This document shows positions 2,241 through 55,956 of a stretch of 64,000 nucleotides of DNA, piece by piece; position 1 is the first letter of the stretch; every line of letters begins with the position of its first letter. The position numbers and the translations under genes are program-made. The stretch comes from Candidatus Dormiibacterota bacterium (GTDB lineage Bacteria > Chloroflexota > Dormibacteria > Dormibacterales > Dormibacteraceae): assembly GCA_955652705.1 (NCBI GenBank), contig CATPBK010000100.1:661-64660 (forward strand). The letters are read 5' to 3'. The notes under the pieces are model-generated. The model was not told the origin of the DNA, ran no database searches, and saw only the letters and a program-made list of their open reading frames with translations.

Positions 2241-3734
2241 ATGGCTATCGCCGAAGACCTCGAGATTGCCCGCTACCTGAAAGACCAGCCTAAGAAGCTC
2301 TTCATCGGCGGCCGCTGGGTGGAGGCGGCCTCCGGCAAAACCTTCGACTCGATCAACCCCGCCACCGGCCAGGTTCTGGCCAAGGTCGCGGAAGGGGACC
2401 GGGAGGACATCGACCGGGCGGTGAAGGCGGCTCGTGCCTCCTTCGAGGCCGGCGTCTGGAAGGACCTGCCGCCCTCCGAGCGCGCCAAGATGCTCTGGAA
2501 AGTCGGCGACCTCATCGAGGAGCGCGTGCTGGAGTTCGCCCAGCTCGACAGCCTCGACAACGGCAAGCCCATCAACGAGGCGCTCCTCTTCGACGCCCCG
2601 ATCGCGGCCAGCACCTTCCGCTACTACGCGGGCTGGGTGACCAAGCTGCAGGGCGAGACCCACCAGCTCTCCTTCCCGGGTCGCTACCTGAGCTACACCC
2701 TGCGCGAGCCGGTCGGCGTCGTGGGCGCCATCGTGCCCTGGAACTTCCCGCTGATGATGGCCGCCTGGAAGGTCGCCTCGGCGCTGGCCTGCGGGAACTC
2801 CATGATCCTCAAGCCGGCCGAGGAGACGCCCCTCTCGGCCCTGCTCTTGGCGGAGATCATCCAGGAGGCCGAGATTCCGGCCGGCGTGTTCAATGTCGTG
2901 CCTGGGTTCGGCGAGACAGCCGGAGCCCGGCTCGCCGAGCACCCCGACGTCGACAAGATCGCCTTCACGGGTTCCACAGAGGTGGGCAAGAAGATCGTCC
3001 AAGCCTCGACCGGCAACTTGAAGCGGGTGAGCCTGGAGCTGGGCGGCAAGTCGCCCAACATCGTTTTCGCCGACGCCAACCTGCAGAGCGCCGCCAGCGG
3101 CGCCTTCATGGGCATCTTCGTGAACCAGGGCGAAGTCTGCACCGCAGGCTCACGTCTTTTCGTCGAGGAGAAGGTGTACGAGCAGACGCTGGACGAGCTA
3201 GCCAAGACCGCCGGCGACATCCAGCTCGGCCCCGGCATCGATTCCATGACGCAGATGGGACCGCTTGTCTCGCAGGCGCAGCTCGATCGCGTCATGGGCT
3301 ACATCACGGTCGGCAACGAGGAGGGGGCTCGACTGGTCACCGGCGGCACGCGCGCCGACGGCGACCTCGCCAACGGCTACTTCGTGAAGCCCACGATCTT
3401 CGCCGACGTGAAGGGGACGATGCGGATCGCGCAAGAGGAGATCTTCGGGCCCGTCCTGGCGGCGATCCCGTTCGCCAGCGAGGAAGAGCTGGTCGCCAAG
3501 GCGAACGAGAGCATGTACGGGCTGGCCGCCGGCGTCTGGACTCAAGACGTGAAGCGGGCGCACCGCGTGGCCCACGCACTGCGCGCCGGCACCGTCTGGG
3601 TCAACTGCTACAACGTCGCCGACCCCGCCAACCCTTGGGGCGGCTACAAGCAAAGCGGCTGGGGCCGCGAACTCGGCCCGTACGCGCTCGAGCTCTACAC
3701 CGAGCTGAAGAACGTCATCCTCGACATCAGCTGA
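2241..3734 (+). CDS. NAD(P)-dependent aldehyde dehydrogenase
   Basis: 497 aa with ALDH hallmarks VPWNFPL, FTGSTEVGK, LELGGKSP and EEIFGPV plus a catalytic Cys region (GEVCTAGSR). Confidence 0.9.
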   Translation: MAIAEDLEIARYLKDQPKKLFIGGRWVEAASGKTFDSINPATGQVLAKVAEGDREDIDRAVKAARASFEAGVWKDLPPSERAKMLWKVGDLIEERVLEFAQLDSLDNGKPINEALLFDAPIAASTFRYYAGWVTKLQGETHQLSFPGRYLSYTLREPVGVVGAIVPWNFPLMMAAWKVASALACGNSMILKPAEETPLSALLLAEIIQEAEIPAGVFNVVPGFGETAGARLAEHPDVDKIAFTGSTEVGKKIVQASTGNLKRVSLELGGKSPNIVFADANLQSAASGAFMGIFVNQGEVCTAGSRLFVEEKVYEQTLDELAKTAGDIQLGPGIDSMTQMGPLVSQAQLDRVMGYITVGNEEGARLVTGGTRADGDLANGYFVKPTIFADVKGTMRIAQEEIFGPVLAAIPFASEEELVAKANESMYGLAAGVWTQDVKRAHRVAHALRAGTVWVNCYNVADPANPWGGYKQSGWGRELGPYALELYTELKNVILDIS

Positions 3735-11258: not shown

Positions 11259-11804
11259 TCAACCCTGGAGGAGGTCGTAGGGGCGGGACTTGTCCCGCCC
11301 GTCGAGGGATAACCTCGAACGAGGGGGTGGTGTCCGCGGTGGAACCGCCGCATTCTCGTGATCCTCGGCCCACCTTGCGGGATTCGCTTCGATGTAGTTC
11401 CAGGCCGCCTCCAGCTCTCGTTCGTCGCGAATGACTCTGTCGTAGTAACCCCGCTGCCAGATCGGTTGGCCGGCTCGCCGGGTGACAGCCGCCTTGTAGA
11501 CACCGACGAAGGTGCTCAATCGAGTGCGACGGGAGAGGGAGTCGGTGCCCAAGTTCAACCAGACGATTCCGTGCACGTGGTTGGGCATCAGCACGAACAC
11601 GTGGGACTTCGCATCGGGGAACAGCGAAGCGGATCGCCACCACTCGGCTTCGGCGATTGTGCCGAGCTCGGACCGCGACATCGCGGCGTGTTCGTCGATG
11701 CTTCCGAACAGCTCGTATCGCAAGCGGGTCACGACCGTGACGAAATACCAGTCGGGGGCGCTGTAGTCCCAGTGTTTCAGTCGGGGCGAGCGGCGCTGGA
11801 TCAC
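11259..11804 (-). CDS. REP-associated tyrosine (Y1, IS200-like) transposase, RayT type
   Basis: 181 aa with HUH motif LMPNHVHGIVW and the C-terminal block WQRGYYDRVIRDERELEAAWNYIEANPARW. There is no tnpB partner, and the gene is flanked by inverted REP hairpins (next three features). Confidence 0.8.
   Translation of the reverse strand: MIQRRSPRLKHWDYSAPDWYFVTVVTRLRYELFGSIDEHAAMSRSELGTIAEAEWWRSASLFPDAKSHVFVLMPNHVHGIVWLNLGTDSLSRRTRLSTFVGVYKAAVTRRAGQPIWQRGYYDRVIRDERELEAAWNYIEANPARWAEDHENAAVPPRTPPPRSRLSLDGRDKSRPYDLLQG
11276..11306 (+). repeat. REP hairpin copy 1 (GTAG head + 9-bp stem)
   Basis: Sequence cGTAG-GGGCGGGAC-TT-GTCCCGCCC-gtcgag. It lies inside the last ~15 codons of the RayT ORF. Confidence 0.8.
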
Positions 11805-11860
11805 GCGCCGATCATGGATCAGAGGCGCTGTGCGTGTCAGCCCTTATTAACAGCCGGACC

Positions 11861-11891
11861 CACGACGGGCGAGACAAGTCTCGCCCCTACG
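11861..11891 (-). repeat. REP hairpin copy 2 (inverted relative to copy 1)
   Basis: The reverse complement is cGTAG-GGGCGAGAC-TT-GTCTCGCCC-gtcgtg. It matches copy 1 at 28/31 positions, with a compensatory G:C to A:T stem change. Confidence 0.8.
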
Positions 11892-11901
11892 ACACCTAAT
11901 C

Positions 11902-11932
11902 CACGACGGGCGAGACAAGTCTCGCCCCTACG
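11902..11932 (-). repeat. REP hairpin copy 3 (identical to copy 2, 10-nt spacer)
   Basis: Exact 31-nt duplicate of copy 2. It ends 1 nt before the glyQS stop codon. Confidence 0.8.
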
Positions 11933-13246
11933 TTAGAAGCGCTGGGTTAACTCATCGACCAGCTCGGCGATGGGGACCCGGACCTGCTCCATCGAGTCCC
12001 GCTCCCGGATCGTGACCGCCCGGTCCTGCAGCGAGTCGAAGTCGACCGTGACGCAGTAAGGCGTGCCGACCTCGTCCTGCCGGCGATAGCGACGCCCGAT
12101 ATTGCCGCCGGTCTGGTCGTACTCGACCCGGAAGTGCGGCCGCAGCGCGGTCACGATCTCGCGCGCGGGTCCAATCAGCTCTTCCTTCTTGGAGAGGGGC
12201 ATCACCGCCACCTGGACCGGCGCCACGTTGCGGTGGAAGCGCAGCACGACCCGGGTCTCGCCTTTGACCTCGTCCTCGTCGTAAGCGTCGAGAAGCAGCA
12301 TGATCGCGATCCGGTCGGCGCCGACCGCCGGTTCGATCACCCATGGCAGGTAGCGCTCGTTCGTCTCCGGGTCCAGGTAGCTCAGGTCCTCGCCGGAGCG
12401 CTCCTGGTGCGTGCGGAGGTCGAAGTCGGTGCGGTCGGCCACGCCCTCCAGCTCCCCCCAGCCGAAAGGGAAGTCGTACTCGATGTCGGTTGTCTGCTTC
12501 GAATAGTGGGAAAGGCTCTCCTTGGGATGGTCGAAGAAGCGCAGGCGGTCGGGCCTGACGCCGAGCACCTCCTGGTACCAGCGCATCCGCTCGGCCCGCC
12601 AGTACTCGAACCAGCGGTCGTCCTCGTCAGGCTTGACGAAGTACTCCATCTCCATGAGCTCGAACTCGCGAAGCCGGAACACGAAGTTGCCCGGCGTGAT
12701 CTCGTTGCGGAAAGCGCGGCCCTGCTGGGCGATGCCGAAGGGGATGCGGACGCGGGTCGAGTTGAGCACGTTCTTGAAGTCCACGAACATGCCCTGGGCG
12801 GTCTCCGGGCGGAGGTGGACCTCGGAGGCGGAATCGGCGACCGGGCCCACGTGAGTGGCGAACATGAGGTTGAAGAGGCGCGGCTCGCTCAGCGCGCCGC
12901 CGCAGTTCGGACAGCGGCCGCCCTGCACCTGGTCGCCCCGCCAGCGGCGCTTGCAGTCACCAAGGCATTGCACCAGCGGGTCCACGAAGTTGTCGACGTG
13001 GCCGGAGGCTTTCCAGACCTCCGGGTGCATGATCAAGGTCGACTCCAGCCCGACCACGTCGTCCCGCAGCTCGACCAGATGCCGCCACCAGAGCTCGCGG
13101 ATGTTGCGCTTCAGCGCCACGCCATAGGGGCCGTAGTCGTAGAACCCGGAGAGGCCCCCGTAGATCTCGCTCGACTGGAAGATGAATCCCCGCCGCTTGC
13201 AGAGCGCGGTGACCTTCTCCATGAGGTCGTCGCGGGTGATCGCCAC
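11933..13246 (-). CDS. glyQS: glycine--tRNA ligase (class II, homodimeric type)
   Basis: 437 aa. N-terminus MAITRDDLMEKVTALCKRRGFIFQSSEIYGGLSGFYDYGPYG, and class II motifs are present. GTG start. Confidence 0.95.
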   Translation of the reverse strand: MAITRDDLMEKVTALCKRRGFIFQSSEIYGGLSGFYDYGPYGVALKRNIRELWWRHLVELRDDVVGLESTLIMHPEVWKASGHVDNFVDPLVQCLGDCKRRWRGDQVQGGRCPNCGGALSEPRLFNLMFATHVGPVADSASEVHLRPETAQGMFVDFKNVLNSTRVRIPFGIAQQGRAFRNEITPGNFVFRLREFELMEMEYFVKPDEDDRWFEYWRAERMRWYQEVLGVRPDRLRFFDHPKESLSHYSKQTTDIEYDFPFGWGELEGVADRTDFDLRTHQERSGEDLSYLDPETNERYLPWVIEPAVGADRIAIMLLLDAYDEDEVKGETRVVLRFHRNVAPVQVAVMPLSKKEELIGPAREIVTALRPHFRVEYDQTGGNIGRRYRRQDEVGTPYCVTVDFDSLQDRAVTIRERDSMEQVRVPIAELVDELTQRF

Positions 13247-13269
13247 TAGTCGACTGTAACGGCCACTAG
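13246..13269. repeat. solo copy of the MITE terminal repeat core, bracketed by CTAG
   Basis: CTAG-tcGACTGTAACGGCCA-CTAG fills the whole recO-stop to glyQS-start spacer. The 13-nt core ACTGTAACGGCCA is identical to both ends of the element at 53908-54123. Confidence 0.6.
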
Positions 13270-43772: not shown

Positions 43773-44555
43773 CTAGGGGCGCGGTTCGACCAGCAGGCTC
43801 TGCAGCGAGCGCCCGAGGCGGCCTCGCCGGTCGTACAGGGCGCCCTCTGCGAAACCTGTGCCCTGCGGTTCGAGCCAGGTGCGGGCGTCGACGCACACCC
43901 AGTCGTCGACCGGCAGACGGTGCACGTACACCGTGAGATCGGGATTGATGTAGATCATTCGCTCCGGTTCGACCAGGTTGCTGATCCCGTTTGGAAAGTC
44001 GGCCGCCGCACAGATGCGCTGAAGCCCGCTCGGCTCTTCGCCGGGAACGACCGGGAGCTTGAGCCGGAACCAACCCCAGCAGGGCCCGAGCCGGCCCAGC
44101 AGCTCGGTGGGAATGCGAACTTCAACACCCAGCCTGTGGTAAGCGGGCCCGCCCCGATAGCTCGGCACCGCCGGGTCGACCACCGACTCCGGTGGGCCAT
44201 GTGGTGGCGGCTCTTCACCGCCCGGGACCGAGACCGCCGACTCGCGGATCCTGACCGCCGTCGCCCGCGCCACCTCGTCTTCCCCGTTCCAGAGCGAGGC
44301 TTCGACGAGCTGGACTTTGCGACCTGGCCGGAGCAGGCGCGACTTGACCGCCAGCGGCACCATGCCCACCGGCCGCATCAGCTCGATGGTCAGCCGCGCC
44401 ACGAACATCGCGTGCTCGGCGGGGAAGCGCTCGATCTCGCGGGCCAACAGCATGGTGGGCGGTCCGCCGTGCAGAGCCTGCTGGCTCCACGGGCTGAGGG
44501 CCGCTTCGGTGGGATGAAAGAGGTCACCCTCGCGCGCGAAGATCGAGTCCGGCAT
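43773..44555 (-). CDS. acyl-CoA thioesterase (TesB-like double hot-dog) family protein
   Basis: 260 aa. N-terminus FHPTEAALSPWSQQALHGGPPTMLLARE resembles the thioesterase-II-like family. Confidence 0.6.
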   Translation of the reverse strand: MPDSIFAREGDLFHPTEAALSPWSQQALHGGPPTMLLAREIERFPAEHAMFVARLTIELMRPVGMVPLAVKSRLLRPGRKVQLVEASLWNGEDEVARATAVRIRESAVSVPGGEEPPPHGPPESVVDPAVPSYRGGPAYHRLGVEVRIPTELLGRLGPCWGWFRLKLPVVPGEEPSGLQRICAAADFPNGISNLVEPERMIYINPDLTVYVHRLPVDDWVCVDARTWLEPQGTGFAEGALYDRRGRLGRSLQSLLVEPRP

Positions 44556-44566
44556 TCGCCCGAAGC

Positions 44567-46009
44567 TTAGGGGCCGAGCAGATAGCCAAGGCGCCGGGGG
44601 AGGTGTGCCAGCGCCGAAGCCAGGGCGGGCGGCCGGCGGCCACGCTCCTCCGCTTGATCCTTGGCGATGATGGCCCTCCGCAGCACGGCCGCCCCCAGCG
44701 ACCGGAGAGGCTCCGGCGGATAGAGCCGGAGCGGCCGGTCGACCATCGGCAGGTGCGTCAATTCGGTGTCGGCCCCGGACACCAGGTCAGCCAGCACCTG
44801 GCCTGCTAGATGCGCGGGCGCCACGCCGTTGCCCGTGTACCCCAGCGCGTAGAAGAGGTTCCTGGCCTCGAGCCGGCCGAAGACTGGCAGATGGGTCCCC
44901 GACACGTCGATCGGCCCTCCCCAGGCATCCACGATAGGAACGTCGGCGAAGCTCGGGAAGAGGCGCCGGAAGCCGTCAGCCGCCTCCGCCACGGCGCGCC
45001 GGTCACGGGTGAAGGAATCGCCGATGCGAGGGGCAGCCCGGCCTCCGCCCCCGCCGAAAGCGATCCGGCCGTCCCGCGTCGTGCGGAAATAGCGAATCGA
45101 GGTCCGCAGGTCGCTGACGAGCTCACCGCCGGTCCACCCGATCTCGGCCAGCCGCTCCGGCGCCGGCGCGGTCAGGACCATGTAGCTGCTCCAGGCCACC
45201 AGCCTTCGGCGGAGGCCGGGCCAACCGATCGCCCAGGCGTTCACGGCGATCACCGCCCGGGGGGCGCGTACCGCGCCCTGCGGGGTGACGGCCAGCGCCG
45301 GCGGCCCGGAGTCGAGGCGCGTCACAGGTGTGCCCTCATATACGCTGACGCCCTTCTCCAGCAGAATGCGCCGCAGGCCGCGCACCAGCAGCGCCGGCTG
45401 GATCGAGGCCCCGTCTCGCATGAAAGCCCCGCCCCGGAAGGCGGGCGAGGCACAGCGCCGCTTTACCTCCTGCGGGCTCAGCTCCACGAGCTCCTCCGGG
45501 GCGCCCACCTCGCGGGCCAGCCGGACCATCTCCTCGCAAACGGCTTCGTGGGGAGCGGAAGTCGCCGCGAAGAGGTAGCCCGCGCGCCTGTACCAGGCGT
45601 CGATGGCGTGCTGGTCGCACAACTCGCCGATCGCCCGGATGCTGTCGGAGATCGCCCGGCAGGCGCGGACCGCCGCCTCGGGGCCGTACAGAGTGATGAG
45701 GCCGTCCAGCTCGTCCCACCAGCCGCTCGCGAAACCGCCGTTGCGCCCGCTCGGTCCCCCGCCGCAGATGTCGGCCTCGAGAACCACCACCCGCAGGGCG
45801 GGCTGGCGTTCGGTCAGGAAATGGGCGGTCCAGAGGCCCGTGTAGCCGCCGCCGACGATGACCACGTCAGCGTTCAAGTCTTCCCGCAGCGGAGGCCGCG
45901 GTTCCTCGCCCCCCGCGGCCAGAGCCTCGCGCAGCCACCAGCTGCGCTGGCTTCCTGGGTTCTGCGCGTTGCCGACGAGGCCCAACCCCACCGGCAACGT
46001 CCGGTTCAA
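44567..46009 (-). CDS. FAD-dependent oxidoreductase (DAO family; gamma-glutamylputrescine-oxidase-like)
   Basis: The TTG at 46007-46009 forms a TTGA overlap with the permease stop. Dinucleotide fold ADVVIVGGGYTGLWTAHFL. 480 aa. The rest of the 810-aa track ORF is a shadow over the permease gene. Confidence 0.8.
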   Translation of the reverse strand: MNRTLPVGLGLVGNAQNPGSQRSWWLREALAAGGEEPRPPLREDLNADVVIVGGGYTGLWTAHFLTERQPALRVVVLEADICGGGPSGRNGGFASGWWDELDGLITLYGPEAAVRACRAISDSIRAIGELCDQHAIDAWYRRAGYLFAATSAPHEAVCEEMVRLAREVGAPEELVELSPQEVKRRCASPAFRGGAFMRDGASIQPALLVRGLRRILLEKGVSVYEGTPVTRLDSGPPALAVTPQGAVRAPRAVIAVNAWAIGWPGLRRRLVAWSSYMVLTAPAPERLAEIGWTGGELVSDLRTSIRYFRTTRDGRIAFGGGGGRAAPRIGDSFTRDRRAVAEAADGFRRLFPSFADVPIVDAWGGPIDVSGTHLPVFGRLEARNLFYALGYTGNGVAPAHLAGQVLADLVSGADTELTHLPMVDRPLRLYPPEPLRSLGAAVLRRAIIAKDQAEERGRRPPALASALAHLPRRLGYLLGP

Positions 46010-47508
46010 ATGGCGCCCACGGCCCTCGCGCTGAGCGCCGTCTCCGGCGCCGATTCGGTCGGCAGGCTGAGGTAGCGCGGGCGCCGCCTCAGGTACGTCC
46101 AGGCGAGCGCCGGCGCCGCCGCCAGCATCAGGGCGGCCGGCACGACCACGAGGAACTTCCCGTTCGTGGCGTCGAAGGCGAGATAGCCGCTGTGGACCCA
46201 GTCCGTGTAGATCAGGTAGCCAGCCAGAGCGAAGAGGCTGACCGCGCTCAAAACCGGGACGATCCCGGCGAACACCAGGCCGTAGAGGCTCTTGCTCAGC
46301 GCGTGCCTGTAGTAGACGGTGCAGGCGATGCCGGTCCAACCGTAATACCAGGCCACGAGGAGTCCGATCGAGGTCACGCCGGAGCTGACGATCGCGCCCA
46401 GGCTGTTTCCGAGCCTGAGCGAGAGGACGGCGATCAAACCGGCCAGGGTGCCCATGATCAGGGTGCCCACCCAGGGCGTCTTCCAGCGCGGGCTGACGAT
46501 CGCCCAGACCCGTCCCAGCATGCCGTCGCGTCCCATCGAGTAGGCCGTGCGCACGCTCGGTAGGAGCGTGGTCTGCAAAGTGGCCACGGTCGACGACAGG
46601 AAGGCGAGGATCGCCAGGGAGCCCCAGTACGGCCCGACCAGCTTGTTGGCGAAGGCGGTCAGCGTGGTCGCCGCGTTGTCGCTGATCTCCTTCGGGGTCA
46701 GCACCATCTGGATGGAGATGCAAGCGAGCATGAAGAGCAGCAGGAGCGCGATCATGCCGAGGATCCCGGCGCGCCCGGGGTTCTCGTTGGAGTCGACGGT
46801 CTCCTCGTTGATGTTCGCCGCCGTGTCCCAGCCCCAATAGAAGAAGACCGAGATAACGACGCCGGCCGCGATGCCCCCGAGGCCGCCCATCGAAAGTGGG
46901 CTCAGCCAGCTCAGCGAGAACTGGCTGCCCCCTCCCTTGAAGAGGCCGATGATCGAAAAGCCGAGCACCACGAGGTACTCGATGCTGAGTAGCACCCACT
47001 GGAAGCGGGCGGCGACCTGAATGCCCACCACGACCATGTACGTCACGAGCGCCAGGAAGAGGACGCCGAAGACGACCTGGTCGACCTGGTTGGCGGAGTC
47101 GAGGGTGATCGGCCCGAGACTCGTCAGGCCCCAGGCGTTGAACAGCTGGAGGAGCGCAAGACCTGCTTGGGGCCCCGCGAAGGACATGAACAGCAGATCT
47201 GTAACGATCACCACCCAGCCGTTGGTGAATCCGATGATCGGGTGGAGAGCCTTGCTGGCCCAGGTGTAAGCGGCACCACAGTTGGGGTCAGCCCGGTTCA
47301 TGTAGTAGTACGCGATGGCGATCCCGGTCACGGGCAGGAAACCGAGCCAGATCGCGGCCGGTCCCGCCAGCGCCACGGCTGCCGCCAAAGCGGCCAGCGT
47401 TGTGGCGATGCTGTAAGCCGGGGCAGTGCTCGAAACCGCGATGATGACGTCGTCCCAGAGTCCGAGTGCGCTCTTGCGCAGCTCCGGCGCGGCGGTCGTG
47501 GCTGCCAT
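46006..47508 (-). CDS. APC family amino acid/polyamine permease
   Basis: ATG at 47508 preceded by GGGGGA at about 7 nt. Translation MAATTAAPELRKSALGLWDDVIIAVSSTAPAYSI... with about 12 TM helices. Confidence 0.85.
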   Translation of the reverse strand: MAATTAAPELRKSALGLWDDVIIAVSSTAPAYSIATTLAALAAAVALAGPAAIWLGFLPVTGIAIAYYYMNRADPNCGAAYTWASKALHPIIGFTNGWVVIVTDLLFMSFAGPQAGLALLQLFNAWGLTSLGPITLDSANQVDQVVFGVLFLALVTYMVVVGIQVAARFQWVLLSIEYLVVLGFSIIGLFKGGGSQFSLSWLSPLSMGGLGGIAAGVVISVFFYWGWDTAANINEETVDSNENPGRAGILGMIALLLLFMLACISIQMVLTPKEISDNAATTLTAFANKLVGPYWGSLAILAFLSSTVATLQTTLLPSVRTAYSMGRDGMLGRVWAIVSPRWKTPWVGTLIMGTLAGLIAVLSLRLGNSLGAIVSSGVTSIGLLVAWYYGWTGIACTVYYRHALSKSLYGLVFAGIVPVLSAVSLFALAGYLIYTDWVHSGYLAFDATNGKFLVVVPAALMLAAAPALAWTYLRRRPRYLSLPTESAPETALSARAVGAI

Positions 47509-47608
47509 TCGTCGTCCCCCTTGCGTAGGCGTGCCCTGCGTTCTCTGCGCTATGTACCACACGGATTCGGCCGGGCGTCAAAGACGCCGGTATGCTGGCG
47601 GGAAAGCG

Positions 47609-48985
47609 ATGTCCAGCAGCACCGCATCGGTCGCGACCGACAGCGCTCGGATCGAAGCCTTGATCGCGCGCGAGGAAGAGCGCTTCCGGGCCGATCGGCG
47701 ACGCTCCAACCAACTCTGGAACGAAGCCCGCAAGTACAGCCCACGAGGCGTGCCCTCCTCCTTCCAGGACGCCGCTCCGCAACCGATCTTCGTCGAGAAG
47801 GGCCTCGGCAGCCGGATCTGGGACGTCGACGGCAACGAATACGTCGACTTCCACAACGGCTTCGGCGTGATGGTGGTGGGCCATGCCCATCCGCTCATCG
47901 TCCAAGCGGTCAGCGAGCGCATCGCCAGGGGATCGCATTTCGCGCAACCGGTGGCCGAGGACGCCATCGTGGCCGCCGAGCTGGCGCGGCGGTTTGGCCA
48001 GCCGCAGTGGCGCTTCACGAACAGCGGGACCGAGTCGACGCTCGACGCGGTCCGCGTCGCGCGCGGCTTCACTGGCCGCGAGCGCCTGCTCAAGATCGAG
48101 GCCTCCTACCACGGGCACCATGACGCGCTCATGGTCTCGGTCGAGCCGCCACCGGACCTGATGGGGCCGCCCGACGCGCCGGCCTCGGTCCCGCAGAGCG
48201 AAGGCATCCCGGCCGCGGCGGTGGCCCTGACGACGGTGGTGCCGTTTAACGACCTGGCGGCGCTGGAGCGGGCTTTCGAGCGCCACCCCGGCGAGGTCGC
48301 GGCGGTCATCGTCGAGCCGGCGATGATGAACGTGGGGATCGTGCTGCCCGACCAGGGCTACCTGGAAGGCGTCCGCGAGGCGGCGCACCGGCACGGAGGG
48401 CTGCTCATCTTCGACGAGGTGAAGACCGGCGTCACGATCGCGTCGGGGGGTGCCACCGAGCGCTTCGGCGTCCAGCCGGACCTGATCGCGCTGGCCAAGG
48501 CGATCGGGGGCGGGCTCCCTTGCGGCGCGATCGGAGGCAGGGCGGACGTCATGGCCGTGATCGAGGAGAAGCGGGTCGCCCAGATGGGCACGTTCAACGG
48601 CAACCCGCTCACGACGGCCGCCGCCAAGGTCACGCTCCAGGAGATCTTGACGCCGGCGGCGTATGCGCACTTCGACGCTCTGGCCGAGGTGCTCCAGGGC
48701 GGGCTGGACGGCGTCATCGCCGAGCACGCGCTGCCCTGCCACGCGATCACGATGGCGGCCCGGGGCGGCATCACGTACCGCAAGGAGCGGGTGCGCAACT
48801 ACCGCGACTACCTGGAAACGGACAAACGCGCGGCCTACCTGTCCTGGCTCTACCAGTGCAACCGGGGTGTCCTCATGGCGCCAGGCGCCGAGGAGAACTG
48901 GACCATCTCGGTGCAGCACTCTGAGGAGGATGTCCGGCGCTTCGTGGACAACTTCGCGGAGATGGCGCGCGACCTCAGGGCCTGA
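47609..48985 (+). CDS. class-III (PLP) aminotransferase, glutamate-1-semialdehyde-aminomutase-like
   Basis: 458 aa from the ATG at 47609, with motifs DVDGNEYVDFHNGFGVMVVGHAHP, LIFDEVKTG and a PLP Lys region ALAKAIGGG. Confidence 0.85.
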   Translation: MSSSTASVATDSARIEALIAREEERFRADRRRSNQLWNEARKYSPRGVPSSFQDAAPQPIFVEKGLGSRIWDVDGNEYVDFHNGFGVMVVGHAHPLIVQAVSERIARGSHFAQPVAEDAIVAAELARRFGQPQWRFTNSGTESTLDAVRVARGFTGRERLLKIEASYHGHHDALMVSVEPPPDLMGPPDAPASVPQSEGIPAAAVALTTVVPFNDLAALERAFERHPGEVAAVIVEPAMMNVGIVLPDQGYLEGVREAAHRHGGLLIFDEVKTGVTIASGGATERFGVQPDLIALAKAIGGGLPCGAIGGRADVMAVIEEKRVAQMGTFNGNPLTTAAAKVTLQEILTPAAYAHFDALAEVLQGGLDGVIAEHALPCHAITMAARGGITYRKERVRNYRDYLETDKRAAYLSWLYQCNRGVLMAPGAEENWTISVQHSEEDVRRFVDNFAEMARDLRA

Positions 48986-48989
48986 TGAG

Positions 48990-50276
48990 ATGAGCCAGCT
49001 GACCGAAGCCGACCTGGCCGGGCTGCGAGAGCGCTTCATCCCGCGCGGGCTCGCCACCGCGCACCCGCTCATCGCTGAGCGCGCCAAGGGAGCCGAGCTC
49101 TGGGACCGGGAGGGCCGGCGCTACATCGACTTCGCGGGCGGGATCGGCGTCATGAACGTGGGCCACGCCCACCCGCGCGTCATGCAGGCAGTGCTGGCAC
49201 AGCTGGAGCGGCTCACGCATACGTCCTTCCAGGTCCTCATGTACGAGTCCTACCTGCGGCTGGCCGAGCGGATCTGCAGCGTCGTCCCGGGCGACTTTCC
49301 CAAGAAGGCGATCTTCTTCAGCACCGGCGCCGAGGCGATCGAGAACGCGGTCAAAATCGCCCGCGCGGCGACTGGCCGGCCGGCCGTGATCAGCTTCCGG
49401 GGCAGCTTCCACGGCCGCACGCTCCTGGCCCTGACGCTGACCGGCTCGGTCATCCCTTACAAGCAGAGCTTTGGCCCTTATGCGCCCGAGGTCTACCAGG
49501 CTGCCTTCCCGTACGAGTACCGAGGCTGGAGCACCGAGCAAGCCCTGGCTTCGCTCGAAGATGTGTTCAGCTCCGAGGTCGCCCCCCAAAGGGTGGCCGC
49601 CATCGTGATCGAGCCGGTCCTCGGCGAAGGCGGGTTCGTGCCCGCCCCAGCGGCTTTCCTGCGCGCGCTGCGTGATCTCACCGAGCGGCACGGCATCCTG
49701 CTCATCGCCGATGAGATCCAGACCGGCTTCGGCCGGTCCGGCCGATTCTTCGCAATCGAGCACGCGGGCGTTGCGCCTGACCTGGTGGCGGTCGCGAAGA
49801 GCCTCGCGGCGGGCTTCCCGCTCTCCGGCGTGATCGGCCGGGCCGACGTCATGGACGCCCCTGACCCCGGCGGCCTGGGCGGCACTTACGGAGGCAATCC
49901 TGTCGCCTGCGCCGCGGCGCTGGCCGTGCTCGACGTCATGCACGACGAGGGCCTGCCCGAGCGGGCTCGAGGAATCGGCGAAAAGCTGGAGGAGCGGATG
50001 CGCGGCTGGGCCGCGGAACACCGCCTGGTCGGGGACCTGCGCGTGCTCGGGGCGATGGCGGGCCTGGAGCTGGTCTCCGATCGAGGCACGCGGGCGCCGG
50101 CCGCGGCGGAGACGGCCCGGATCCTTAGCCTCGCCCGCGACCGGGGGCTGATCCTCCTGCGCTGCGGCATCCACCACAACGTCATCCGCACCCTGATGCC
50201 GCTCACGATCCCGGACGACCTGCTGGAAGAGGGCCTCGACATCCTCGAGGCGGCACTGGAGGAGGTCTCGAAATGA
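48990..50276 (+). CDS. gabT: 4-aminobutyrate--2-oxoglutarate transaminase-like class-III aminotransferase
   Basis: 428 aa from the ATG at 48990, with motifs [38 protein letters not shown] and [14 protein letters not shown]. Confidence 0.8.
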
Positions 50277-51718
50277 AGGCAGCGATTCGCAGCCACCAGA
50301 TGTTCGTGGGCGGCGATTGGGCGCCCGGCTCCGGCGGCGAGGTCCAGGAGGTCAAGAACCCGGCGACCGGCGAGGTCATCGCGCAGGTCCCGAAGGGCAC
50401 GCCGGCGGACGTCGACGCCGCGGTGGCCGCAGCCCGTAAGGCTTACGAAGAAACCTGGTTCGATAGCACGCCCCGTGACCGCAGCGAGCGATTGCTGAAG
50501 CTCGCCGACGCCGTCGAGGCTCACGGCCAGGAGCTCGCCCGGATCGAGTCGGAGAACGTTGGCAAGCCGCTTGCCGCCACCATCTCGGAGGAGATCCCGC
50601 CCATCGCGGACACCTTCCGCTTCTTCGCCGGGGCCGCCCGGCTGCTCGAGGGACGCGCGGCCGGTGAGTACATGACCGGCTTCACGAGCTTCATCCGGCG
50701 GGAGTCGCTCGGCGTGGTTGGGTCGATCGCTCCCTGGAACTACCCGCTGCTGATGGCGGCGTGGAAGGTCGCTCCCGCGCTGGCGGCGGGCAACACCGTC
50801 GTGCTCAAGCCTTCCGAGTGGACGCCGCTCACAGCGCTGCGGCTGGCCGAGCTGGCGGCCGACATCCTGCCGCCCGGCGTCCTCAACGTGATCACCGGCG
50901 ACGGGGAGCCGGTCGGCGCCGGGCTCGTCCGCCATCCCGGAGTGAACATGGTGTCTCTGACCGGCGACGTCGCGACTGGCAAGGAGGTCGCCCGGGCCGC
51001 CGCCGCGACGCTGAAGCGCGTCCACCTCGAGCTGGGCGGCAAGGCGCCGGTGATCGTCTTCGACGACGCCGATGTGGCCGCGGTCGTGGAAGGCATCAAG
51101 GTGGGCGGCTTCTTCAACGCGGGCCAGGACTGCACCGCGGCGACGCGCGTCATCGCCGGTCCCGGGATCCATGACAGCCTGCTGGCCGACCTGGTGCCGG
51201 CCGTCAACTCCCTCCACGTCGGCGATCCCACGGCCGACGACACCGAGATGGGCCCTCTCGTTTCCGACGAGCAGCTGGACCGCGTCGCCGGCTTCGTGGA
51301 CCGGGCGCGGCAGGGCGGCGCCAAGGTGCTGGCGGGGGGCTCGCGGATCGACAAGCCGGGGTCCTGGTACAAGCCGACTGTCGTGCTGCCGCCCGCGCCC
51401 GACGCCGAGATCGTGCAGCGGGAGGTGTTCGGGCCGGTCGTCACCGTCCAGCAGTTCAGCGATGAAGAGCAGGCCCTGGCCTGGGCGAATGGTGTCGACT
51501 ACGGGCTGGCCGCTTCGGTCTGGACCCGCGACGTCGGGCGCGCGCTCCGCATGGCGCGACGGCTGCAGTTCGGGACGGTCTGGATCAACGCGCACATCCC
51601 GCTCGTGAACGAGATGCCACACGGCGGCTACAAACAGAGCGGCTACGGCAAGGACATGTCGATCTACTCACTCGAGGAGTACACGCAGATAAAGCACGTG
51701 ATGGCGTCGCTCGACTGA
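50273..51718 (+). CDS. aldehyde dehydrogenase (aminobutyraldehyde / succinate-semialdehyde dehydrogenase-like)
   Basis: 481 aa with an ATGA overlap onto the previous gene. Motifs [39 protein letters not shown]. Confidence 0.88.
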
Positions 51719-51794
51719 CGCCCGCCTTAACGCATAGCCACTTTGGCAACCGGAGGCGACGACCCGGAGGACTCGCCGGGCCTGGCAGAGGGAA

Positions 51795-51818
51795 CCTGGA
51801 AGCCGCGATTCGGCCAGG
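51795..51818 (+). terminator. possible terminator hairpin after the aldehyde dehydrogenase gene
   Basis: CCUG-GAA-GCCG-CGAUU-CGGC-CAGG followed by UUUCG. The stem is interrupted and the U tract is short. Confidence 0.3.
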
Positions 51819-51824
51819 TTTCGA

Positions 51825-52505
51825 CTAGTGCCGGGCGACCCTGATGCCGAGCTCGTCGAGGTGGATCCGGAGGTCGGCCGGGTCCTCGTAGACGCGGAAA
51901 GCGCCCGCCCGTTCCAGCTCCTCGCGGCCGTAGCCCCCAGACAGCAAGCCGACGCCCAGGGCGCGCGCCCGCTGCGCGGCGAGCATGTCCCAGACGCTGT
52001 CGCCGACGACGATGGCGTCCTGGGCGCCAACGCCCAGCTTCGCCGCGGCGGCCAGGAAGAGGTGTGGGTCCGGCTTCGCGAAAGGCACCTCGTCGCGCGT
52101 CACGACCGCTGTGCCAGGCGGGACGCCCAGGATCCGCAGCACCGGGTCGGCGCTGTGCCGCCCGCCGCTCGTGGCGATCGCCCAAGGAATGCCCATCTCG
52201 GTGAGCTGGCGGAGCAGGTCGCGGGCGCCGGGCAGGGGGCGGACCTGGGTCACCGCGCGTTCATAGGCGCGGTAGTGGGCCTCCATCACCTGGTGTGCCT
52301 CATCGGGGGCCAGGTCACGCCCCGTCTCCCGCAGCAGCGCGTTCACGAAGAGGCCGCCGCTCATGCCGATCCGCCGGTGGATGCGCCAAACGGAGAGCTC
52401 GATCCCGGACTCTTCCAGTGCCTCGCGCCAGGCGAGCACATGCTGGTAGACCGAATCGACGAGCGTGCCATCGAGGTCGAAGAGGAGAGCCGGCTGGACT
52501 TCCAT
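51825..52505 (-). CDS. HAD-superfamily hydrolase (phosphoglycolate-phosphatase-like)
   Basis: 226 aa. Motif I is LLFDLDGTLVDS; motif IV is VVGDSVWD. Confidence 0.85.
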   Translation of the reverse strand: MEVQPALLFDLDGTLVDSVYQHVLAWREALEESGIELSVWRIHRRIGMSGGLFVNALLRETGRDLAPDEAHQVMEAHYRAYERAVTQVRPLPGARDLLRQLTEMGIPWAIATSGGRHSADPVLRILGVPPGTAVVTRDEVPFAKPDPHLFLAAAAKLGVGAQDAIVVGDSVWDMLAAQRARALGVGLLSGGYGREELERAGAFRVYEDPADLRIHLDELGIRVARH

Positions 52506-52508
52506 CGG

Positions 52509-53300
52509 TTAGCAGGCCAGCTCCAGGTGCGCGCGCCGCCAGGCCCTGCGCAGCATGAATAGGCCGACTGCCGAAACAAAGGCCATGCCGCCCAGCTCGA
52601 AGACGAGGAAGAGAAGCGGCGCGACGTCCGTCGCCCGCGGGAACGGGTTGAGCCCCAGCGGGCTGGACGTGAGAAGAAGCGTGAGGAGGATCGCTATCCC
52701 CCGCATCGAGTCCCAGAGGCCGTGCAGGAGGGATACCAGCAGGTAGGCCCCGACGAACTTCCAGGTCAGCCGGAGCCGGCCCCGCCTCGCGGCGGCTCCA
52801 AAGAGAACCCCGCCCAGGATCCCTGTCCAGAGGCCGTGCCCGACCGGCGCCAGGACGCCCCGCAGCACCTCGGTCCAGACCAGGTTCAAGAGCGAGAGCC
52901 CGTGAGGCGTGAAGAGCGCGTTCAGCGCATAGCCGCTGCTTTCGAAGGCGGCGAAGCCGAAGCCGACAGCGGCCCCGAGGACGATCCCGTCGAGCGTCGT
53001 GAAGTGCCGGATGCCCCAGGCCACGAGGAGCAATGCAAGAACCTTGGCGAGCTCCTCGATCAGGCCCACGCCGAGATAGATGAAGATCCCGTCCTGGAGC
53101 AGCCAGACCTCCAGCAGCGAGGCGGTCAGCACGCCCAGCACGCCGCCATAGACGAAGGCGAAGAAGATGCGCTGGCTGGAGATGGTGGCGCTGGGGTCGT
53201 GGTCGAGATAGAAGACGACGGCGGTGGTTGGGACGAGGAAGCTGCCGAGCAGCACGACGGTCGGAATCAGATTGAGGTTGCCGGTCAGATCGGTCACCAC
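52509..53300 (-). CDS. PrsW family intramembrane metalloprotease
   Basis: 263 aa, multi-TM, with motifs GLIEELAK and HGLWTGILG / HGLWD. The N-terminal boundary is uncertain because a hydrophobic in-frame segment continues upstream without a canonical start. Confidence 0.7.
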   Translation of the reverse strand: MVTDLTGNLNLIPTVVLLGSFLVPTTAVVFYLDHDPSATISSQRIFFAFVYGGVLGVLTASLLEVWLLQDGIFIYLGVGLIEELAKVLALLLVAWGIRHFTTLDGIVLGAAVGFGFAAFESSGYALNALFTPHGLSLLNLVWTEVLRGVLAPVGHGLWTGILGGVLFGAAARRGRLRLTWKFVGAYLLVSLLHGLWDSMRGIAILLTLLLTSSPLGLNPFPRATDVAPLLFLVFELGGMAFVSAVGLFMLRRAWRRAHLELAC

Positions 53301-53471
53301 GACCGAGAGGACCCAGAGGAGTAGGCCGCTCAGAAGGACGGCCAGCCACCGCCAGCGTCGGATCGCAGGGGCGGCGCTAATCGACGACGAGCCTCGAAGC
53401 CCCCAACACCTACACGATAACCAGCCCGCTTCGGGAATGGCGATGCACGAACCTGGGTAAGAATTGGCGTA

Positions 53472-53900
53472 GTGACGATCGACTGTCCCCAGTGCGACAC
53501 CAAGAACCGGGTTGATTCGGCTGCCACGGGTGCACCCGTCTGCGGCAAGTGCAAAGAGGCCCTCCCCTGGCTCGCAGACGCCGGTGACGCCGACTTCAAG
53601 GCCGTGGTCGAGGAGTCGCCGCTCCCCGTGCTCGTCGATTTTTGGGCGCCCTGGTGCGGGCCTTGCCGAATGGTCTCGCCGGCCGTCGAGCAGATCGGCC
53701 GCGACCTCCGCGGCCGGCTGAAGGTGGTCAAGGTCAACACCGACGACAACCAGGTCCTCTCCGAGCGCTTCGATGTCCGGGGCATCCCGACGCTGGTGAT
53801 GCTGAAGGGCGGCAAGCAGGTGGACCGGGTGAGCGGGGCCATGCCCGCGCCGCAGCTGCGCCAGTGGGTGTTCGCGGCGATGCTGGCCGGCGCCCGCTAA
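53472..53900 (+). CDS. thioredoxin with N-terminal zinc-finger (thioredoxin-2 type)
   Basis: 142 aa with CPQC...CGKC followed by FWAPWCGPCR. GTG start. Confidence 0.88.
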   Translation: MTIDCPQCDTKNRVDSAATGAPVCGKCKEALPWLADAGDADFKAVVEESPLPVLVDFWAPWCGPCRMVSPAVEQIGRDLRGRLKVVKVNTDDNQVLSERFDVRGIPTLVMLKGGKQVDRVSGAMPAPQLRQWVFAAMLAGAR

Positions 53901-53907
53901 GCCCGCT

Positions 53908-54123
53908 CTAGTGAACTGTAACGGCCATTTGCGTAGCAGGCCGGAGGCTCAGAGACCGGCGTTCCAGGCCGTCGGTGCCAAGGCGCGGGTGGCGCGACGA
54001 CGAGCGCATCCAAAGATGCGTGATGTCTAGCGCCGGGCCCCGCAACACCGGCGTCAGCGCCCGGAGGGCGCCCGGCGGCCTGGAACGTCGGATGCACGTC
54101 AAATGGCCGTTACAGTCCACTAG
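53908..54123. mobile_element. MITE-like palindromic element (20-nt terminal inverted repeats, CTAG on both flanks)
   Basis: CTAG + TGAACTGTAACGGCCATTTG (53912-53931) pairs with CAAATGGCCGTTACAGTCCA (54100-54119) + CTAG, matching at 19/20. A nested 12-nt inverted repeat CGTTCCAGGCCG (53960-53971) pairs with CGGCCTGGAACG (54076-54087). There is no credible ORF inside. Confidence 0.6.
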
Positions 54124-54626
54124 TCGAAGACCAGCGCGTAACCCTGGCGCGGATGGCTGACCAGGCGGCAGGGGACCTGGGCCGCCTCCAGCCTGCCTCG
54201 CAACCTGCCGACGTACGTGCGAACCTGCTCCTGCGCCAGGTTCGGATTGCCCCAGGCGCGCGAGGGCAGCGTGGTGGTCGGGAAAAAGCGGTTCGGGTGG
54301 GCCAGCAGGAACCCGAAGAGCTGCGCTTCGCGGGGGGTCAGCGCGACGGCCCGGCCGTTGTGGCCGAGGATACCGACGTTGACGTCGAGCTCCACCCCGA
54401 CCAGCTCCCAATGACGCGTTTGCCAAAAACGTAGGCGCTCGCCGACGCGCGTCACCTCCGCCTCCAATCGCCTGATGTCGCCGATCGGAGCGCCCTGCTC
54501 GCGAGCCCGGTCCAGGATCCCGCTGTTGATCGTCGAGAGCTCCTCGTAGACGGTGACCCAGCGGCGAGCGTCCGCCGGGTACTCTGTGTCTGGATCCTCA
54601 CCAGGAATCAGCGACCGAACGGCCAC
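54120..54626 (-). CDS. winged-helix (OmpR/PhoB C-terminal type) transcriptional regulator without receiver domain
   Basis: 168 aa. The C-terminal LTPREAQLFGFLLAHPNRFF...VRTYVGRLRGRL...GYALV matches the Trans_reg_C fold. The N-terminal ~90 aa are unassigned. Confidence 0.7.
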   Translation of the reverse strand: MAVRSLIPGEDPDTEYPADARRWVTVYEELSTINSGILDRAREQGAPIGDIRRLEAEVTRVGERLRFWQTRHWELVGVELDVNVGILGHNGRAVALTPREAQLFGFLLAHPNRFFPTTTLPSRAWGNPNLAQEQVRTYVGRLRGRLEAAQVPCRLVSHPRQGYALVFD

Positions 54627-54696
54627 CCCCAGCAGTCCCCCTGTTGACGAAGCCGGCTGCAGAAGAGCCTAGCACTTTGGTTTTACGTGCCGGCTT

Positions 54697-55956
54697 TCAG
54701 CGCAGGAAGTCGACGGCCTCTTCCTTGCCGTCCCAGACCACTGTCGTGCGCGCCGGCTCGGTCCGCGCCACGACACGCCCGCCCCTGAGCACAAGGCGGC
54801 GCGGAGCGACGAGCCTGATGGCGTCCACCTCGGTCGGCGCCGCGAAGCAGACCAGGTCGGCCGGCTGTCCGGGCTCCAAACCGTAGGCCTCGATCCCGAG
54901 GGCGCGAGCGGAGTTGTACGTGATCATCTCGAAGAGTGTCTTCAGCTCGCGGTGTCCAGACATGTGCCCGTAATGGGCCAGCACGAAGGCGGCTTGCAGA
55001 GGGTCGCCATAACCGAGCGGATACCACGGGTCCATCACGGAGTCGTGGCCGATGCAGACGTTGACACCGGCTTCGAGGAGCTCCTTGACGCGCGTCATGC
55101 CACGCCGGATCGGATGGCTGTCGAAGCGGCCCTGCAGCACCGAGTTGTCGAGCGGGTTGGTCACCATGTTCATATGCGCGCGCCGCAGGTTGTTGATGAG
55201 CCGGTAGGCATAGGCGTTGTTGTAGGAACCCATCGCCGTGGTGTGGCTCGCGGTGACCCTGCCTTCCAGGCCCAGCCTGATCGTTTCCGCCGCCATCACT
55301 TCGCTGAACCGAGAGTGGTCGTCGTCGGTCTCGTCGCAATGGATGTCGACGCGCAAGCCGTGCTCGGCGGCCAGCTCGAACGCGAACTTGACCGATCGCT
55401 CGCCGTACTCGCGGGTCAGCTCGAAATGCGGGATCGCGCCGACCACATCGACGCCGAGCCCGACCGCCTTCTTCATCAGCTCCTCTCCACCGTCGAACGA
55501 TTGGATCCCCTGCTGAGGGAAGGCGACCAGCTGCAGCGTCATCTGCTCGCCGATCTCCTCCCGAAGCTCGAGCAGCGCTCGCACGGCCCGCAACTCGGGA
55601 TCGCAGACGTCGACGTGGCTGCGGACGTGCTGGACGCCGTTGGCGAGCTGCCAGCGGAGAACCTTACGGACCCGGCGCTTCACGTCTTTGATGGTCAGGT
55701 CCCGCACCCGCTCGGACCAGATCGCGATCCCTTCGAAGAGGGAGCCGCTCAAATTCCAGCGCGGCTCGCCGACCGTGAGCACGGCGTCCAGATGGATGTG
55801 CGGCTCGACCAGGGCCGGCGTGACGAGCCCGCCCTCGAGGTCGATCATCTCCGTCGCCTCTGCCTCCGGCGGCGCGAACGCTCCCTCCCGCACGCCGATG
55901 TCCGTCAGCTCGTCGGTCCCCATCAGGCGGGCGTTGCTGAGCAGGAGGTCGAGCAT
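54697..55956 (-). CDS. amidohydrolase, cytosine-deaminase-like
   Basis: 419 aa from the ATG at 55956 (MLDLLLSNARLMG...) with metal ligands EPHIHLDAV, VDIHCDETDD and IGHDSVMDPWYP. It is divergent from an NCS1 permease. Confidence 0.8.
   Translation of the reverse strand: MLDLLLSNARLMGTDELTDIGVREGAFAPPEAEATEMIDLEGGLVTPALVEPHIHLDAVLTVGEPRWNLSGSLFEGIAIWSERVRDLTIKDVKRRVRKVLRWQLANGVQHVRSHVDVCDPELRAVRALLELREEIGEQMTLQLVAFPQQGIQSFDGGEELMKKAVGLGVDVVGAIPHFELTREYGERSVKFAFELAAEHGLRVDIHCDETDDDHSRFSEVMAAETIRLGLEGRVTASHTTAMGSYNNAYAYRLINNLRRAHMNMVTNPLDNSVLQGRFDSHPIRRGMTRVKELLEAGVNVCIGHDSVMDPWYPLGYGDPLQAAFVLAHYGHMSGHRELKTLFEMITYNSARALGIEAYGLEPGQPADLVCFAAPTEVDAIRLVAPRRLVLRGGRVVARTEPARTTVVWDGKEEAVDFLR

Follow-up and report, generated by a model that had tools for sequence, protein, structure and literature searches.

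Between a thioredoxin gene and a convergent winged-helix regulator gene, the 64,000-nucleotide stretch of DNA analyzed here (the window; 68% GC) carries a 210-bp palindromic element that we identify, with a probability of about 95%, as a MITE: a nonautonomous, mobile element and not a conserved cis-structure. We base this identity on multiple copies in unrelated contexts and on precise empty sites at the orthologous locus, both of which strongly support the proposal of an earlier sequence-only reading that the segment is a MITE-like nonautonomous transposable element. The element is small, its 210 bp lying within the limit of about 300 to 500 bp that applies to MITEs; it is noncoding, has 21-nt terminal inverted repeats (TIRs), occurs at several unrelated loci, and has both a precise empty site and a target duplication, as expected of a MITE. 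In the window it was inserted at a lone CTAG that shares bases with the regulator's stop codon, and every relative sampled lacks an insertion there.

Members of the family come from uncultured soil bacteria of high GC content, a lineage whose NCBI label is Chloroflexi and whose RecO relatives are labeled Dormibacterota. The closest contigs to the window are labeled Chloroflexi or Chloroflexota MAGs, and RecO homologues with 63 to 73% identity are labeled Candidatus Dormibacteraeota. In the literature searched, we found no description of transposable elements of this lineage. The family is new and of a known type, and it will not surprise a specialist; the understanding of MITEs in general is unchanged. 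What it adds to a poorly known uncultured soil lineage is a defined MITE family with exact ends, a target site, alleles with and without the insertion, and the remains of a decayed copy.

Structure of the element and its flanking genes

Every feature that the sequence-only reading had described in this segment was found where that reading had placed it, with some adjustment of lengths and boundaries. The sequences CTAGTGAACTGTAACGGCCATTTG (53908 to 53931) and CAAATGGCCGTTACAGTCCACTAG (54100 to 54123) form the terminal inverted repeat that it had reported, 24 nt long and 96% complementary (23/24, one mismatch). The window contains two occurrences of the 20-nt repeat, which 100 shuffles never produced, and allowing up to three mismatches gave no further match in the window. 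The second inverted repeat nested inside is also present but slightly longer than the 12 nt originally read, with a left arm at 53956 to 53975 (plus strand) and a right arm at 54072 to 54091 (minus strand), each of 20 nt and together 90% complementary. At the center is the small hairpin GCATC-CAAA-GATGC (54006 to 54019), as had been noted; sequence and fold give it a wider form, GCGCATC-CAAA-GATGCGT (54004 to 54021), at the tip of a long stem. The segment is predicted to fold as RNA into one long imperfect hairpin of −143.9 kcal/mol, with z scores of −9.2 for the plus strand and −7.8 for the minus strand, and the minimum free energy fold of the 210-nt core contains 83 base pairs. Covariation within the hairpin is uninformative because the copies are too similar (93 to 95%).

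The boundaries were revised. Whereas the sequence-only reading had delimited a 208-bp core with 4-bp CTAG flanks, the alignment of five independent copies, together with the empty sites, resets the ends of the MITE body to 53911 and 54120, giving 210 bp. This body is a nearly end-to-end imperfect palindrome with a GC content of 70%. The five aligned complete copies have the invariant ends GTGGAC…GTCCAC, except that the left end of the window copy reads GTGAAC (GTGAAC…GTCCAC). The TIRs, conserved in all copies and matching at 20 of 21 positions in the window, are GTGAACTGTAACGGCCATTTG on the left (53911 to 53931, plus strand; the consensus of the other copies is GTGGACTGTAACGGCCATTTG) and, on the right, a sequence whose reverse complement is GTGGACTGTAACGGCCATTTG (54100 to 54120, minus strand). 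The open reading frames inside the element are mechanical ones of 39 to 66 amino acids with no Pfam match, and its translated frames retrieve only spurious calls, in agreement with the earlier statement that no coding ORF lies inside.

The flanking genes are those that the sequence-only reading had proposed, and Pfam confirmed both. To the left lies a Trx2-type thioredoxin gene (53472 to 53900, plus strand; PF00085, E = 7e-30, with a subthreshold Zn-ribbon match), whose TAA stop codon ends 8 nt before the left TA flanking the element. To the right lies a Trans_reg_C winged-helix regulator gene (54120 to 54626, minus strand; PF00486, E = 8e-11). The right-hand CTAG does supply the stop codon of the regulator, as had been observed: the TAG at 54120 to 54122 on the minus strand is made up of the TA target and the terminal C of the element. 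The C terminus of the regulator (…VFD-TAG) is alike in the filled and empty alleles.

Copies, empty sites, and a decayed relic

An exact scan with the 17-mer ACTGTAACGGCCATTTG of the GTDB representatives, one genome per species, gave three real matches, all in the Dormibacterota-like MAG "Chloroflexi bacterium CF_83" (VBGR01), and 18 chance or coding coincidences. The three matches mark full-length copies. BLAST and alignment place two of them, L003 (431 to 644) and L007 (4546 to 4755), at 95% identity each; the third, L010 (3244 to 3493), has 79% identity and an internal insertion of 36 nt. The flanks of all three are dissimilar to the window. When JGI metagenomes were scanned with a degenerate TIR pattern, the L003 and L007 loci were recovered again and two copies were added, the complete L026 and L023, which is cut by a contig end, along with about 20 coding-sequence coincidences (V-D-Y-N-G-H-L motif). 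The filled sites therefore total six (window, L003, L007, L010, L026, and L023), with one relic, and their flanks are mutually dissimilar. A copy count had been suggested as a check on mobility, and it returned a multicopy family: the five unrelated loci outside the window, in a related MAG and in soil metagenomes, hold copies with 79 to 95% identity. The most divergent of these is L010 (VBGR01000041.1), where the 36-nt GC-rich insertion (…GGATTGGGGGCCCCGCCCGCAGGGTGGGGAATGCGGC…) lies in the right arm at 3380 to 3420.

Copies of this kind leave traces in sequence resources. One Logan contig, which matches positions 51799 to 53944 of the window with 100% identity, ends 37 nt inside the element, as assemblies typically do on reaching a repeat. 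A search of a protein database with the concatenated translated frames, seeking copies or a parent transposase, retrieved only three spurious ORF calls, on other copies (P0009 to P0011). In practical terms, the element breaks short-read assemblies and seeds spurious ORF calls in protein databases.

For the empty-site search, the closest homologues of the regulator were traced to their contigs, which comprised three NCBI MAGs (VBIE01, VBGR01, and VBGY01) and ten ENA contigs. In all 13 orthologous contigs the regulator and thioredoxin genes are convergent, intact, and 12 nt apart. All 13 junctions are empty and read …CGCTGAGCCCCGACCGCC-CTAG-TCGAAAACCAGC… (…GACCGCC-CTAG-TCGAAAACC…), with a single CTAG where the window has CTAG-element-CTAG. 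Empty sites of exactly this form, CTAG alone at orthologous loci, had been proposed beforehand as something to look for, and a single copy held at a conserved position had been named as evidence against mobility; the reverse of the latter was observed. One of the empty junctions, on VBGR01000090, belongs to the MAG that holds three copies elsewhere, so the family is present in that genome while this site is unoccupied. The DNA flanking the insertion is 88 to 90% identical between the window and the empty-site relatives, and identity to the window is about 93% at the recO–glyS locus of relatives. Between MITE copies from different genomes it is about 95%. Copies that are closer to one another than their flanks are would fit an insertion after the lineages split, from a source that was still homogeneous.

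The window also contains what is probably an older insertion that lost its interior. At 13246 to 13269, the sequence CTAG-TCGACTGTAACGGCCA-CTAG preserves, between its CTAGs, a 16-nt piece of the terminal repeat that differs at one position, and it includes an exact 14-mer match to the TIR that is not expected by chance. This relic lies at the RecO stop codon, which the second CTAG supplies, just upstream of the start of the glycyl-tRNA synthetase gene. In ten contigs from a related population whose RecO is 95% identical, a different remnant, TTAG-TCCGTAGC-GGCCGTTACAGTCCAC-TGG, occupies this site, and in more distant relatives (RecO 70 to 73% identical) the relic is absent and the spacer sequence is unrelated. 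Long palindromes are prone to slippage deletion, and we infer that the form of the relic is the expected product of such a deletion between the CCA of the left repeat and the CCA that ends the right one. If this interpretation is correct, the relic shows past activity and loss of the family.

Target site and rival explanations

The flanks of the copies have the dinucleotide TA in common. TA adjoins both ends of the window copy and of L026, the left end of L003 (TG on the right), the right end of L010 (CA on the left), and the single readable, right end of L023 (which reads CTAC); neither flank of L007 is TA (CA on the left, AA on the right). TA thus adjoins 7 of the 11 ends, and the flanks of the remaining four (TG, CA, CA, and AA) are each one substitution away from it, although these target statistics are thin because they come from only six filled sites and one relic. 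By comparison, TA makes up 1.2% of the dinucleotides in the window (760 observed against about 1,609 expected). The base inside the TA is invariant at all 11 ends (G on the left, C on the right) and for that reason belongs to the terminal repeat, whereas the base outside varies, with C at three of five left flanks and G at three of six right flanks (6/11 together; Fisher p of about 0.04 by hand calculation on a small sample). Identical 4-mers stand on both sides of only one of the five complete copies, that of the window; the others read CTAG/CTAA, CTAG/CTGG, ACAG/CTAG, and TCAG/CAAC. The first of these pairs, from L026, shares TA on both sides and is mismatched at the outer bases. The window alone cannot separate a 2-bp from a 4-bp duplication because CTAG is a palindrome and both predict the same filled and empty sequences. 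Across the copies and the empty site, we favor as the simplest reading the duplication of 2 bp (TA) at targets that are preferentially CTAG, in which the duplicated target would be 53909 to 53910 on the left (within CTAG at 53908 to 53911) and 54121 to 54122 on the right (within CTAG at 54120 to 54123). Two other candidates were rejected. Duplication of 3 bp (CTA/TAG) would require the 3-mers at the two ends to repeat each other directly, which they do not, and symmetrical TIRs bordered by TA at either end speak against a palindrome-associated element of the IS200/IS605 type.

Insertion at TA with duplication of that dinucleotide characterizes Tc1/mariner and IS630-family elements (PMC2170065). 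ISY100, for example, gave a TA duplication in 34 of 39 in vitro products, with occasional AA/TT targets (PMC2170065), and a preference of IS630 for TA within 5'-CTAG-3' is stated in the title of Tenzen and Ohtsubo (1991). A TA duplication of this kind points to a DDE transposase of the IS630/Tc1-mariner type that acted in trans. An enzyme of this class would have bound the terminal repeats, excised the element, and joined its 3' ends to staggered positions at TA, so that insertion duplicated the central TA of CTAG. We consider it probable that the element is a TA-duplicating, IS630-type MITE, an assignment that draws on the target signature only because no partner transposase was found; membership in an IS630-derived class is accordingly likely but unproven.

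The sequence-only reading had suggested that the CTAGs could be a 4-bp target-site duplication, of the kind that IS5-family elements make. If an IS5-family or related transposase had acted, with a YTAR/CTAG duplication, the element would be 208 bp long and read TGRAC…GTCCA. IS5 itself targets YTAR, which the perfect CTAGs on both sides of the window copy fit. CTAG is also present at three of five left and two of six right flanks, and in 7 of 10 comparisons an outer base is the same as its partner, more often than base composition predicts. However, the duplication is perfect in just one of five complete copies, and the extra mismatches all fall at the outer positions. The base that would be the inner one of the duplication is invariant (11/11), a pattern expected of a transposon end under constraint but not of a target duplication, and L026 (CTAG/CTAA) and L023 (CTAC at its one readable end) depart from a shared 4-mer. 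Across copies only TA is common to the flanks, and the adjoining G/C behaves as part of the element. An IS630-type preference for CTAG with TA duplication explains the same data without extra mutations, and an IS5-like partner was likewise not found. A 4-bp duplication is therefore probably wrong, and an IS5-family origin is unlikely. Much less plausible still is a host cis-element, whether a structured RNA gene, an mRNA-stabilizing 3' hairpin, or a bidirectional terminator, although the location exactly between convergent genes and the very stable folds predicted for both strands would suit one. Bacterial MITE transcripts form long stem-loops, and such host roles have been discussed for them (PMC2229807, PMC10969869). 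Against this explanation, the junction is empty in 13 of 13 relatives with both genes intact and 12 nt apart, and copies of the sequence stand in unrelated contexts, one of them (L010) immediately before a start codon. An Rfam search of positions 53000 to 55000 (E ≤ 1) returned one irrelevant weak match only, and a promoter and terminator scan found no sigma-70-like promoter and no hairpin with a T-tract terminator. The earlier suggestion that the element is by identity a structured RNA or bidirectional terminator is thus unsupported.

The window does contain a gene of the kind that spreads REP/BIME-type palindromic repeats. It encodes a RAYT-like protein of 181 amino acids (11259 to 11804, minus strand; NCBIfam NF047646, E = 1.4e-18, below the curated cutoff), with a weak match to the TnpA-REP structure PDB 4er8 and no Pfam match, and it is flanked by its own hairpin repeats. 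These repeats (GTAGGGGCGGGACTTGTCCCGCCC) have nothing in common with the MITE, which has 21-nt TIRs and TA flanks. REPs are about 20 to 40 nt long, without terminal inverted repeats of this sort, and make no target duplication. Sequence comparison effectively refutes the idea that the MITE is a palindromic repeat spread by this RAYT, which we consider the least credible of the alternatives.

For the probable IS630-type MITE, a parent element was sought in several ways. Exact-pattern scans, which would miss diverged ends, found no full-length insertion sequence or autonomous partner with ends GTGGACTGTAACGG… among GTDB representatives, JGI metagenomes, and IMG/VR, so that the search for insertion sequence ends matching the repeat, suggested by the sequence-only reading, returned no match in these collections. 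IMG/VR gave coding coincidences only, no two TIRs at insertion sequence spacing were paired in the genome, metagenome, or viral scans, and blastn of the element against PLSDB plasmids gave no match. A single tblastn query, the Shigella IS630 transposase, found nothing at E < 0.9 in the window and the fetched loci (about 64 kb of host and about 0.3 Mb of related loci), and the TIR has no resemblance to IS630 ends as read from pSS_046. The claim that the window has no cognate transposase held as far as this tblastn search tested it; the RAYT that is present is unrelated. The consensus TIR GTGGACTGTAACGGCCATTTG provides a sequence tag for finding the missing transposase.

Among known systems, the closest in behavior are RUP of Streptococcus pneumoniae and the Correia/NEMIS elements of Neisseria, with which the element has no sequence in common. 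Both are small, with TIRs, TA at the termini, and long stem-loop transcripts (PMC2229807). RUP is a TA-targeting bacterial MITE and, like the element described here, is small and noncoding, has TIRs, and inserts at TA; it is attributed to a transposase of the IS630 family, that of IS630-Spn1, acting in trans (PMC2229807). However, RUP is 107 bp long and AT rich, with about 108 copies and TIRs that match a known insertion sequence, whereas the present element has 210 bp, 70% GC, few copies per genome so far, and no parent found. Correia/NEMIS elements are similar in their TIRs of about 24 nt, TA termini and target duplication, long stem-loop transcripts, and definition by filled and empty sites (PMC2229807). 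Their length of 107 to 155 bp, their hundreds of copies, and their IHF sites were not seen here. Correia elements also carry promoter elements, and none was seen in this element. IS630 and ISY100 have in common with it the TA target and, on the reading favored here, the 2-bp duplication and, for IS630, the preference for TA within CTAG, but they are autonomous elements of about 0.95 to 1.15 kb that encode a DDE transposase, whereas this element encodes nothing and its ends are unlike those of IS630.

Placement on stop codons and neighboring loci

Because the element begins with G, TA followed by the element rebuilds TAG, and insertion into a TAG or TAA stop codon consequently leaves the protein unchanged. 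Four of the seven sites lie on stop codons of real genes, as supported by Pfam or database homologues: the regulator in the window, RecO at the relic, a GNAT acetyltransferase at L026, and an OppC-like permease at L023, the target TA in the last two being within a TAG stop. At L007 the TAG of an E1 dehydrogenase is 2 nt from the element, and at L010 a gap of 3 nt separates the end of the element from an epimerase start codon (ATG). CTAG occurs 31 times in the window against about 188 expected from base composition, and 5 of the 31 are in the element and the relic. With TA and CTAG rare in a 68% GC genome, surviving copies would tend to cluster on gene ends. Target choice and the survival of harmless insertions are inseparable here, and we regard the placement as mainly a matter of survival. 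The family would in that case exemplify the persistence of a TA-targeting element in a genome of 68% GC through landing on stop codons and rebuilding them.

The convergent transcripts would each now end in a hairpin of about 100 bp, and any effect of this would be a by-product and not the reason for the presence of the element. A more speculative proposal, which we doubt even more than an IS5-family origin, is a "stop-codon-homing" MITE, in which the CTAG/TA preference and the terminal G allow harmless colonization of TAG and TAA stops and some copies are retained for the effect of the hairpin. If this were true, a 3' UTR hairpin of about 100 bp could be a mobile transcript-end stabilizer or a barrier between packed convergent genes.

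Several further features of the window and its relatives were seen. Another spurious entry in public protein collections, P0003, arises at an empty site, where the reading leaves the regulator gene with a frameshift and continues on the antisense strand of the thioredoxin gene. Positions 44555 to 51822 form a segment of about 7.3 kb between genes for a 4HBT thioesterase and a HAD hydrolase, which are 39 nt apart in related MAGs. A transposase was sought in this segment and none was found; its genes are metabolic only, encoding a DAO oxidoreductase, an amino acid permease, class III aminotransferase(s), and an aldehyde dehydrogenase. The RAYT-like gene is part of a REPtron-like unit (11259 to 11932), with its hairpin repeat at 11277 to 11300 (plus strand), 11867 to 11890 (minus strand), and 11908 to 11931 (minus strand), and relatives with 93% identity have no part of this unit in their glyS-ppdK spacer. 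Finally, about 96 nt (53359 to 53455) separate the thioredoxin gene from a gene for a PrsW-like protease in the window, where relatives have two DUF3147 genes (about 760 nt); this difference is a lineage-specific deletion or gain adjoining the MITE site.
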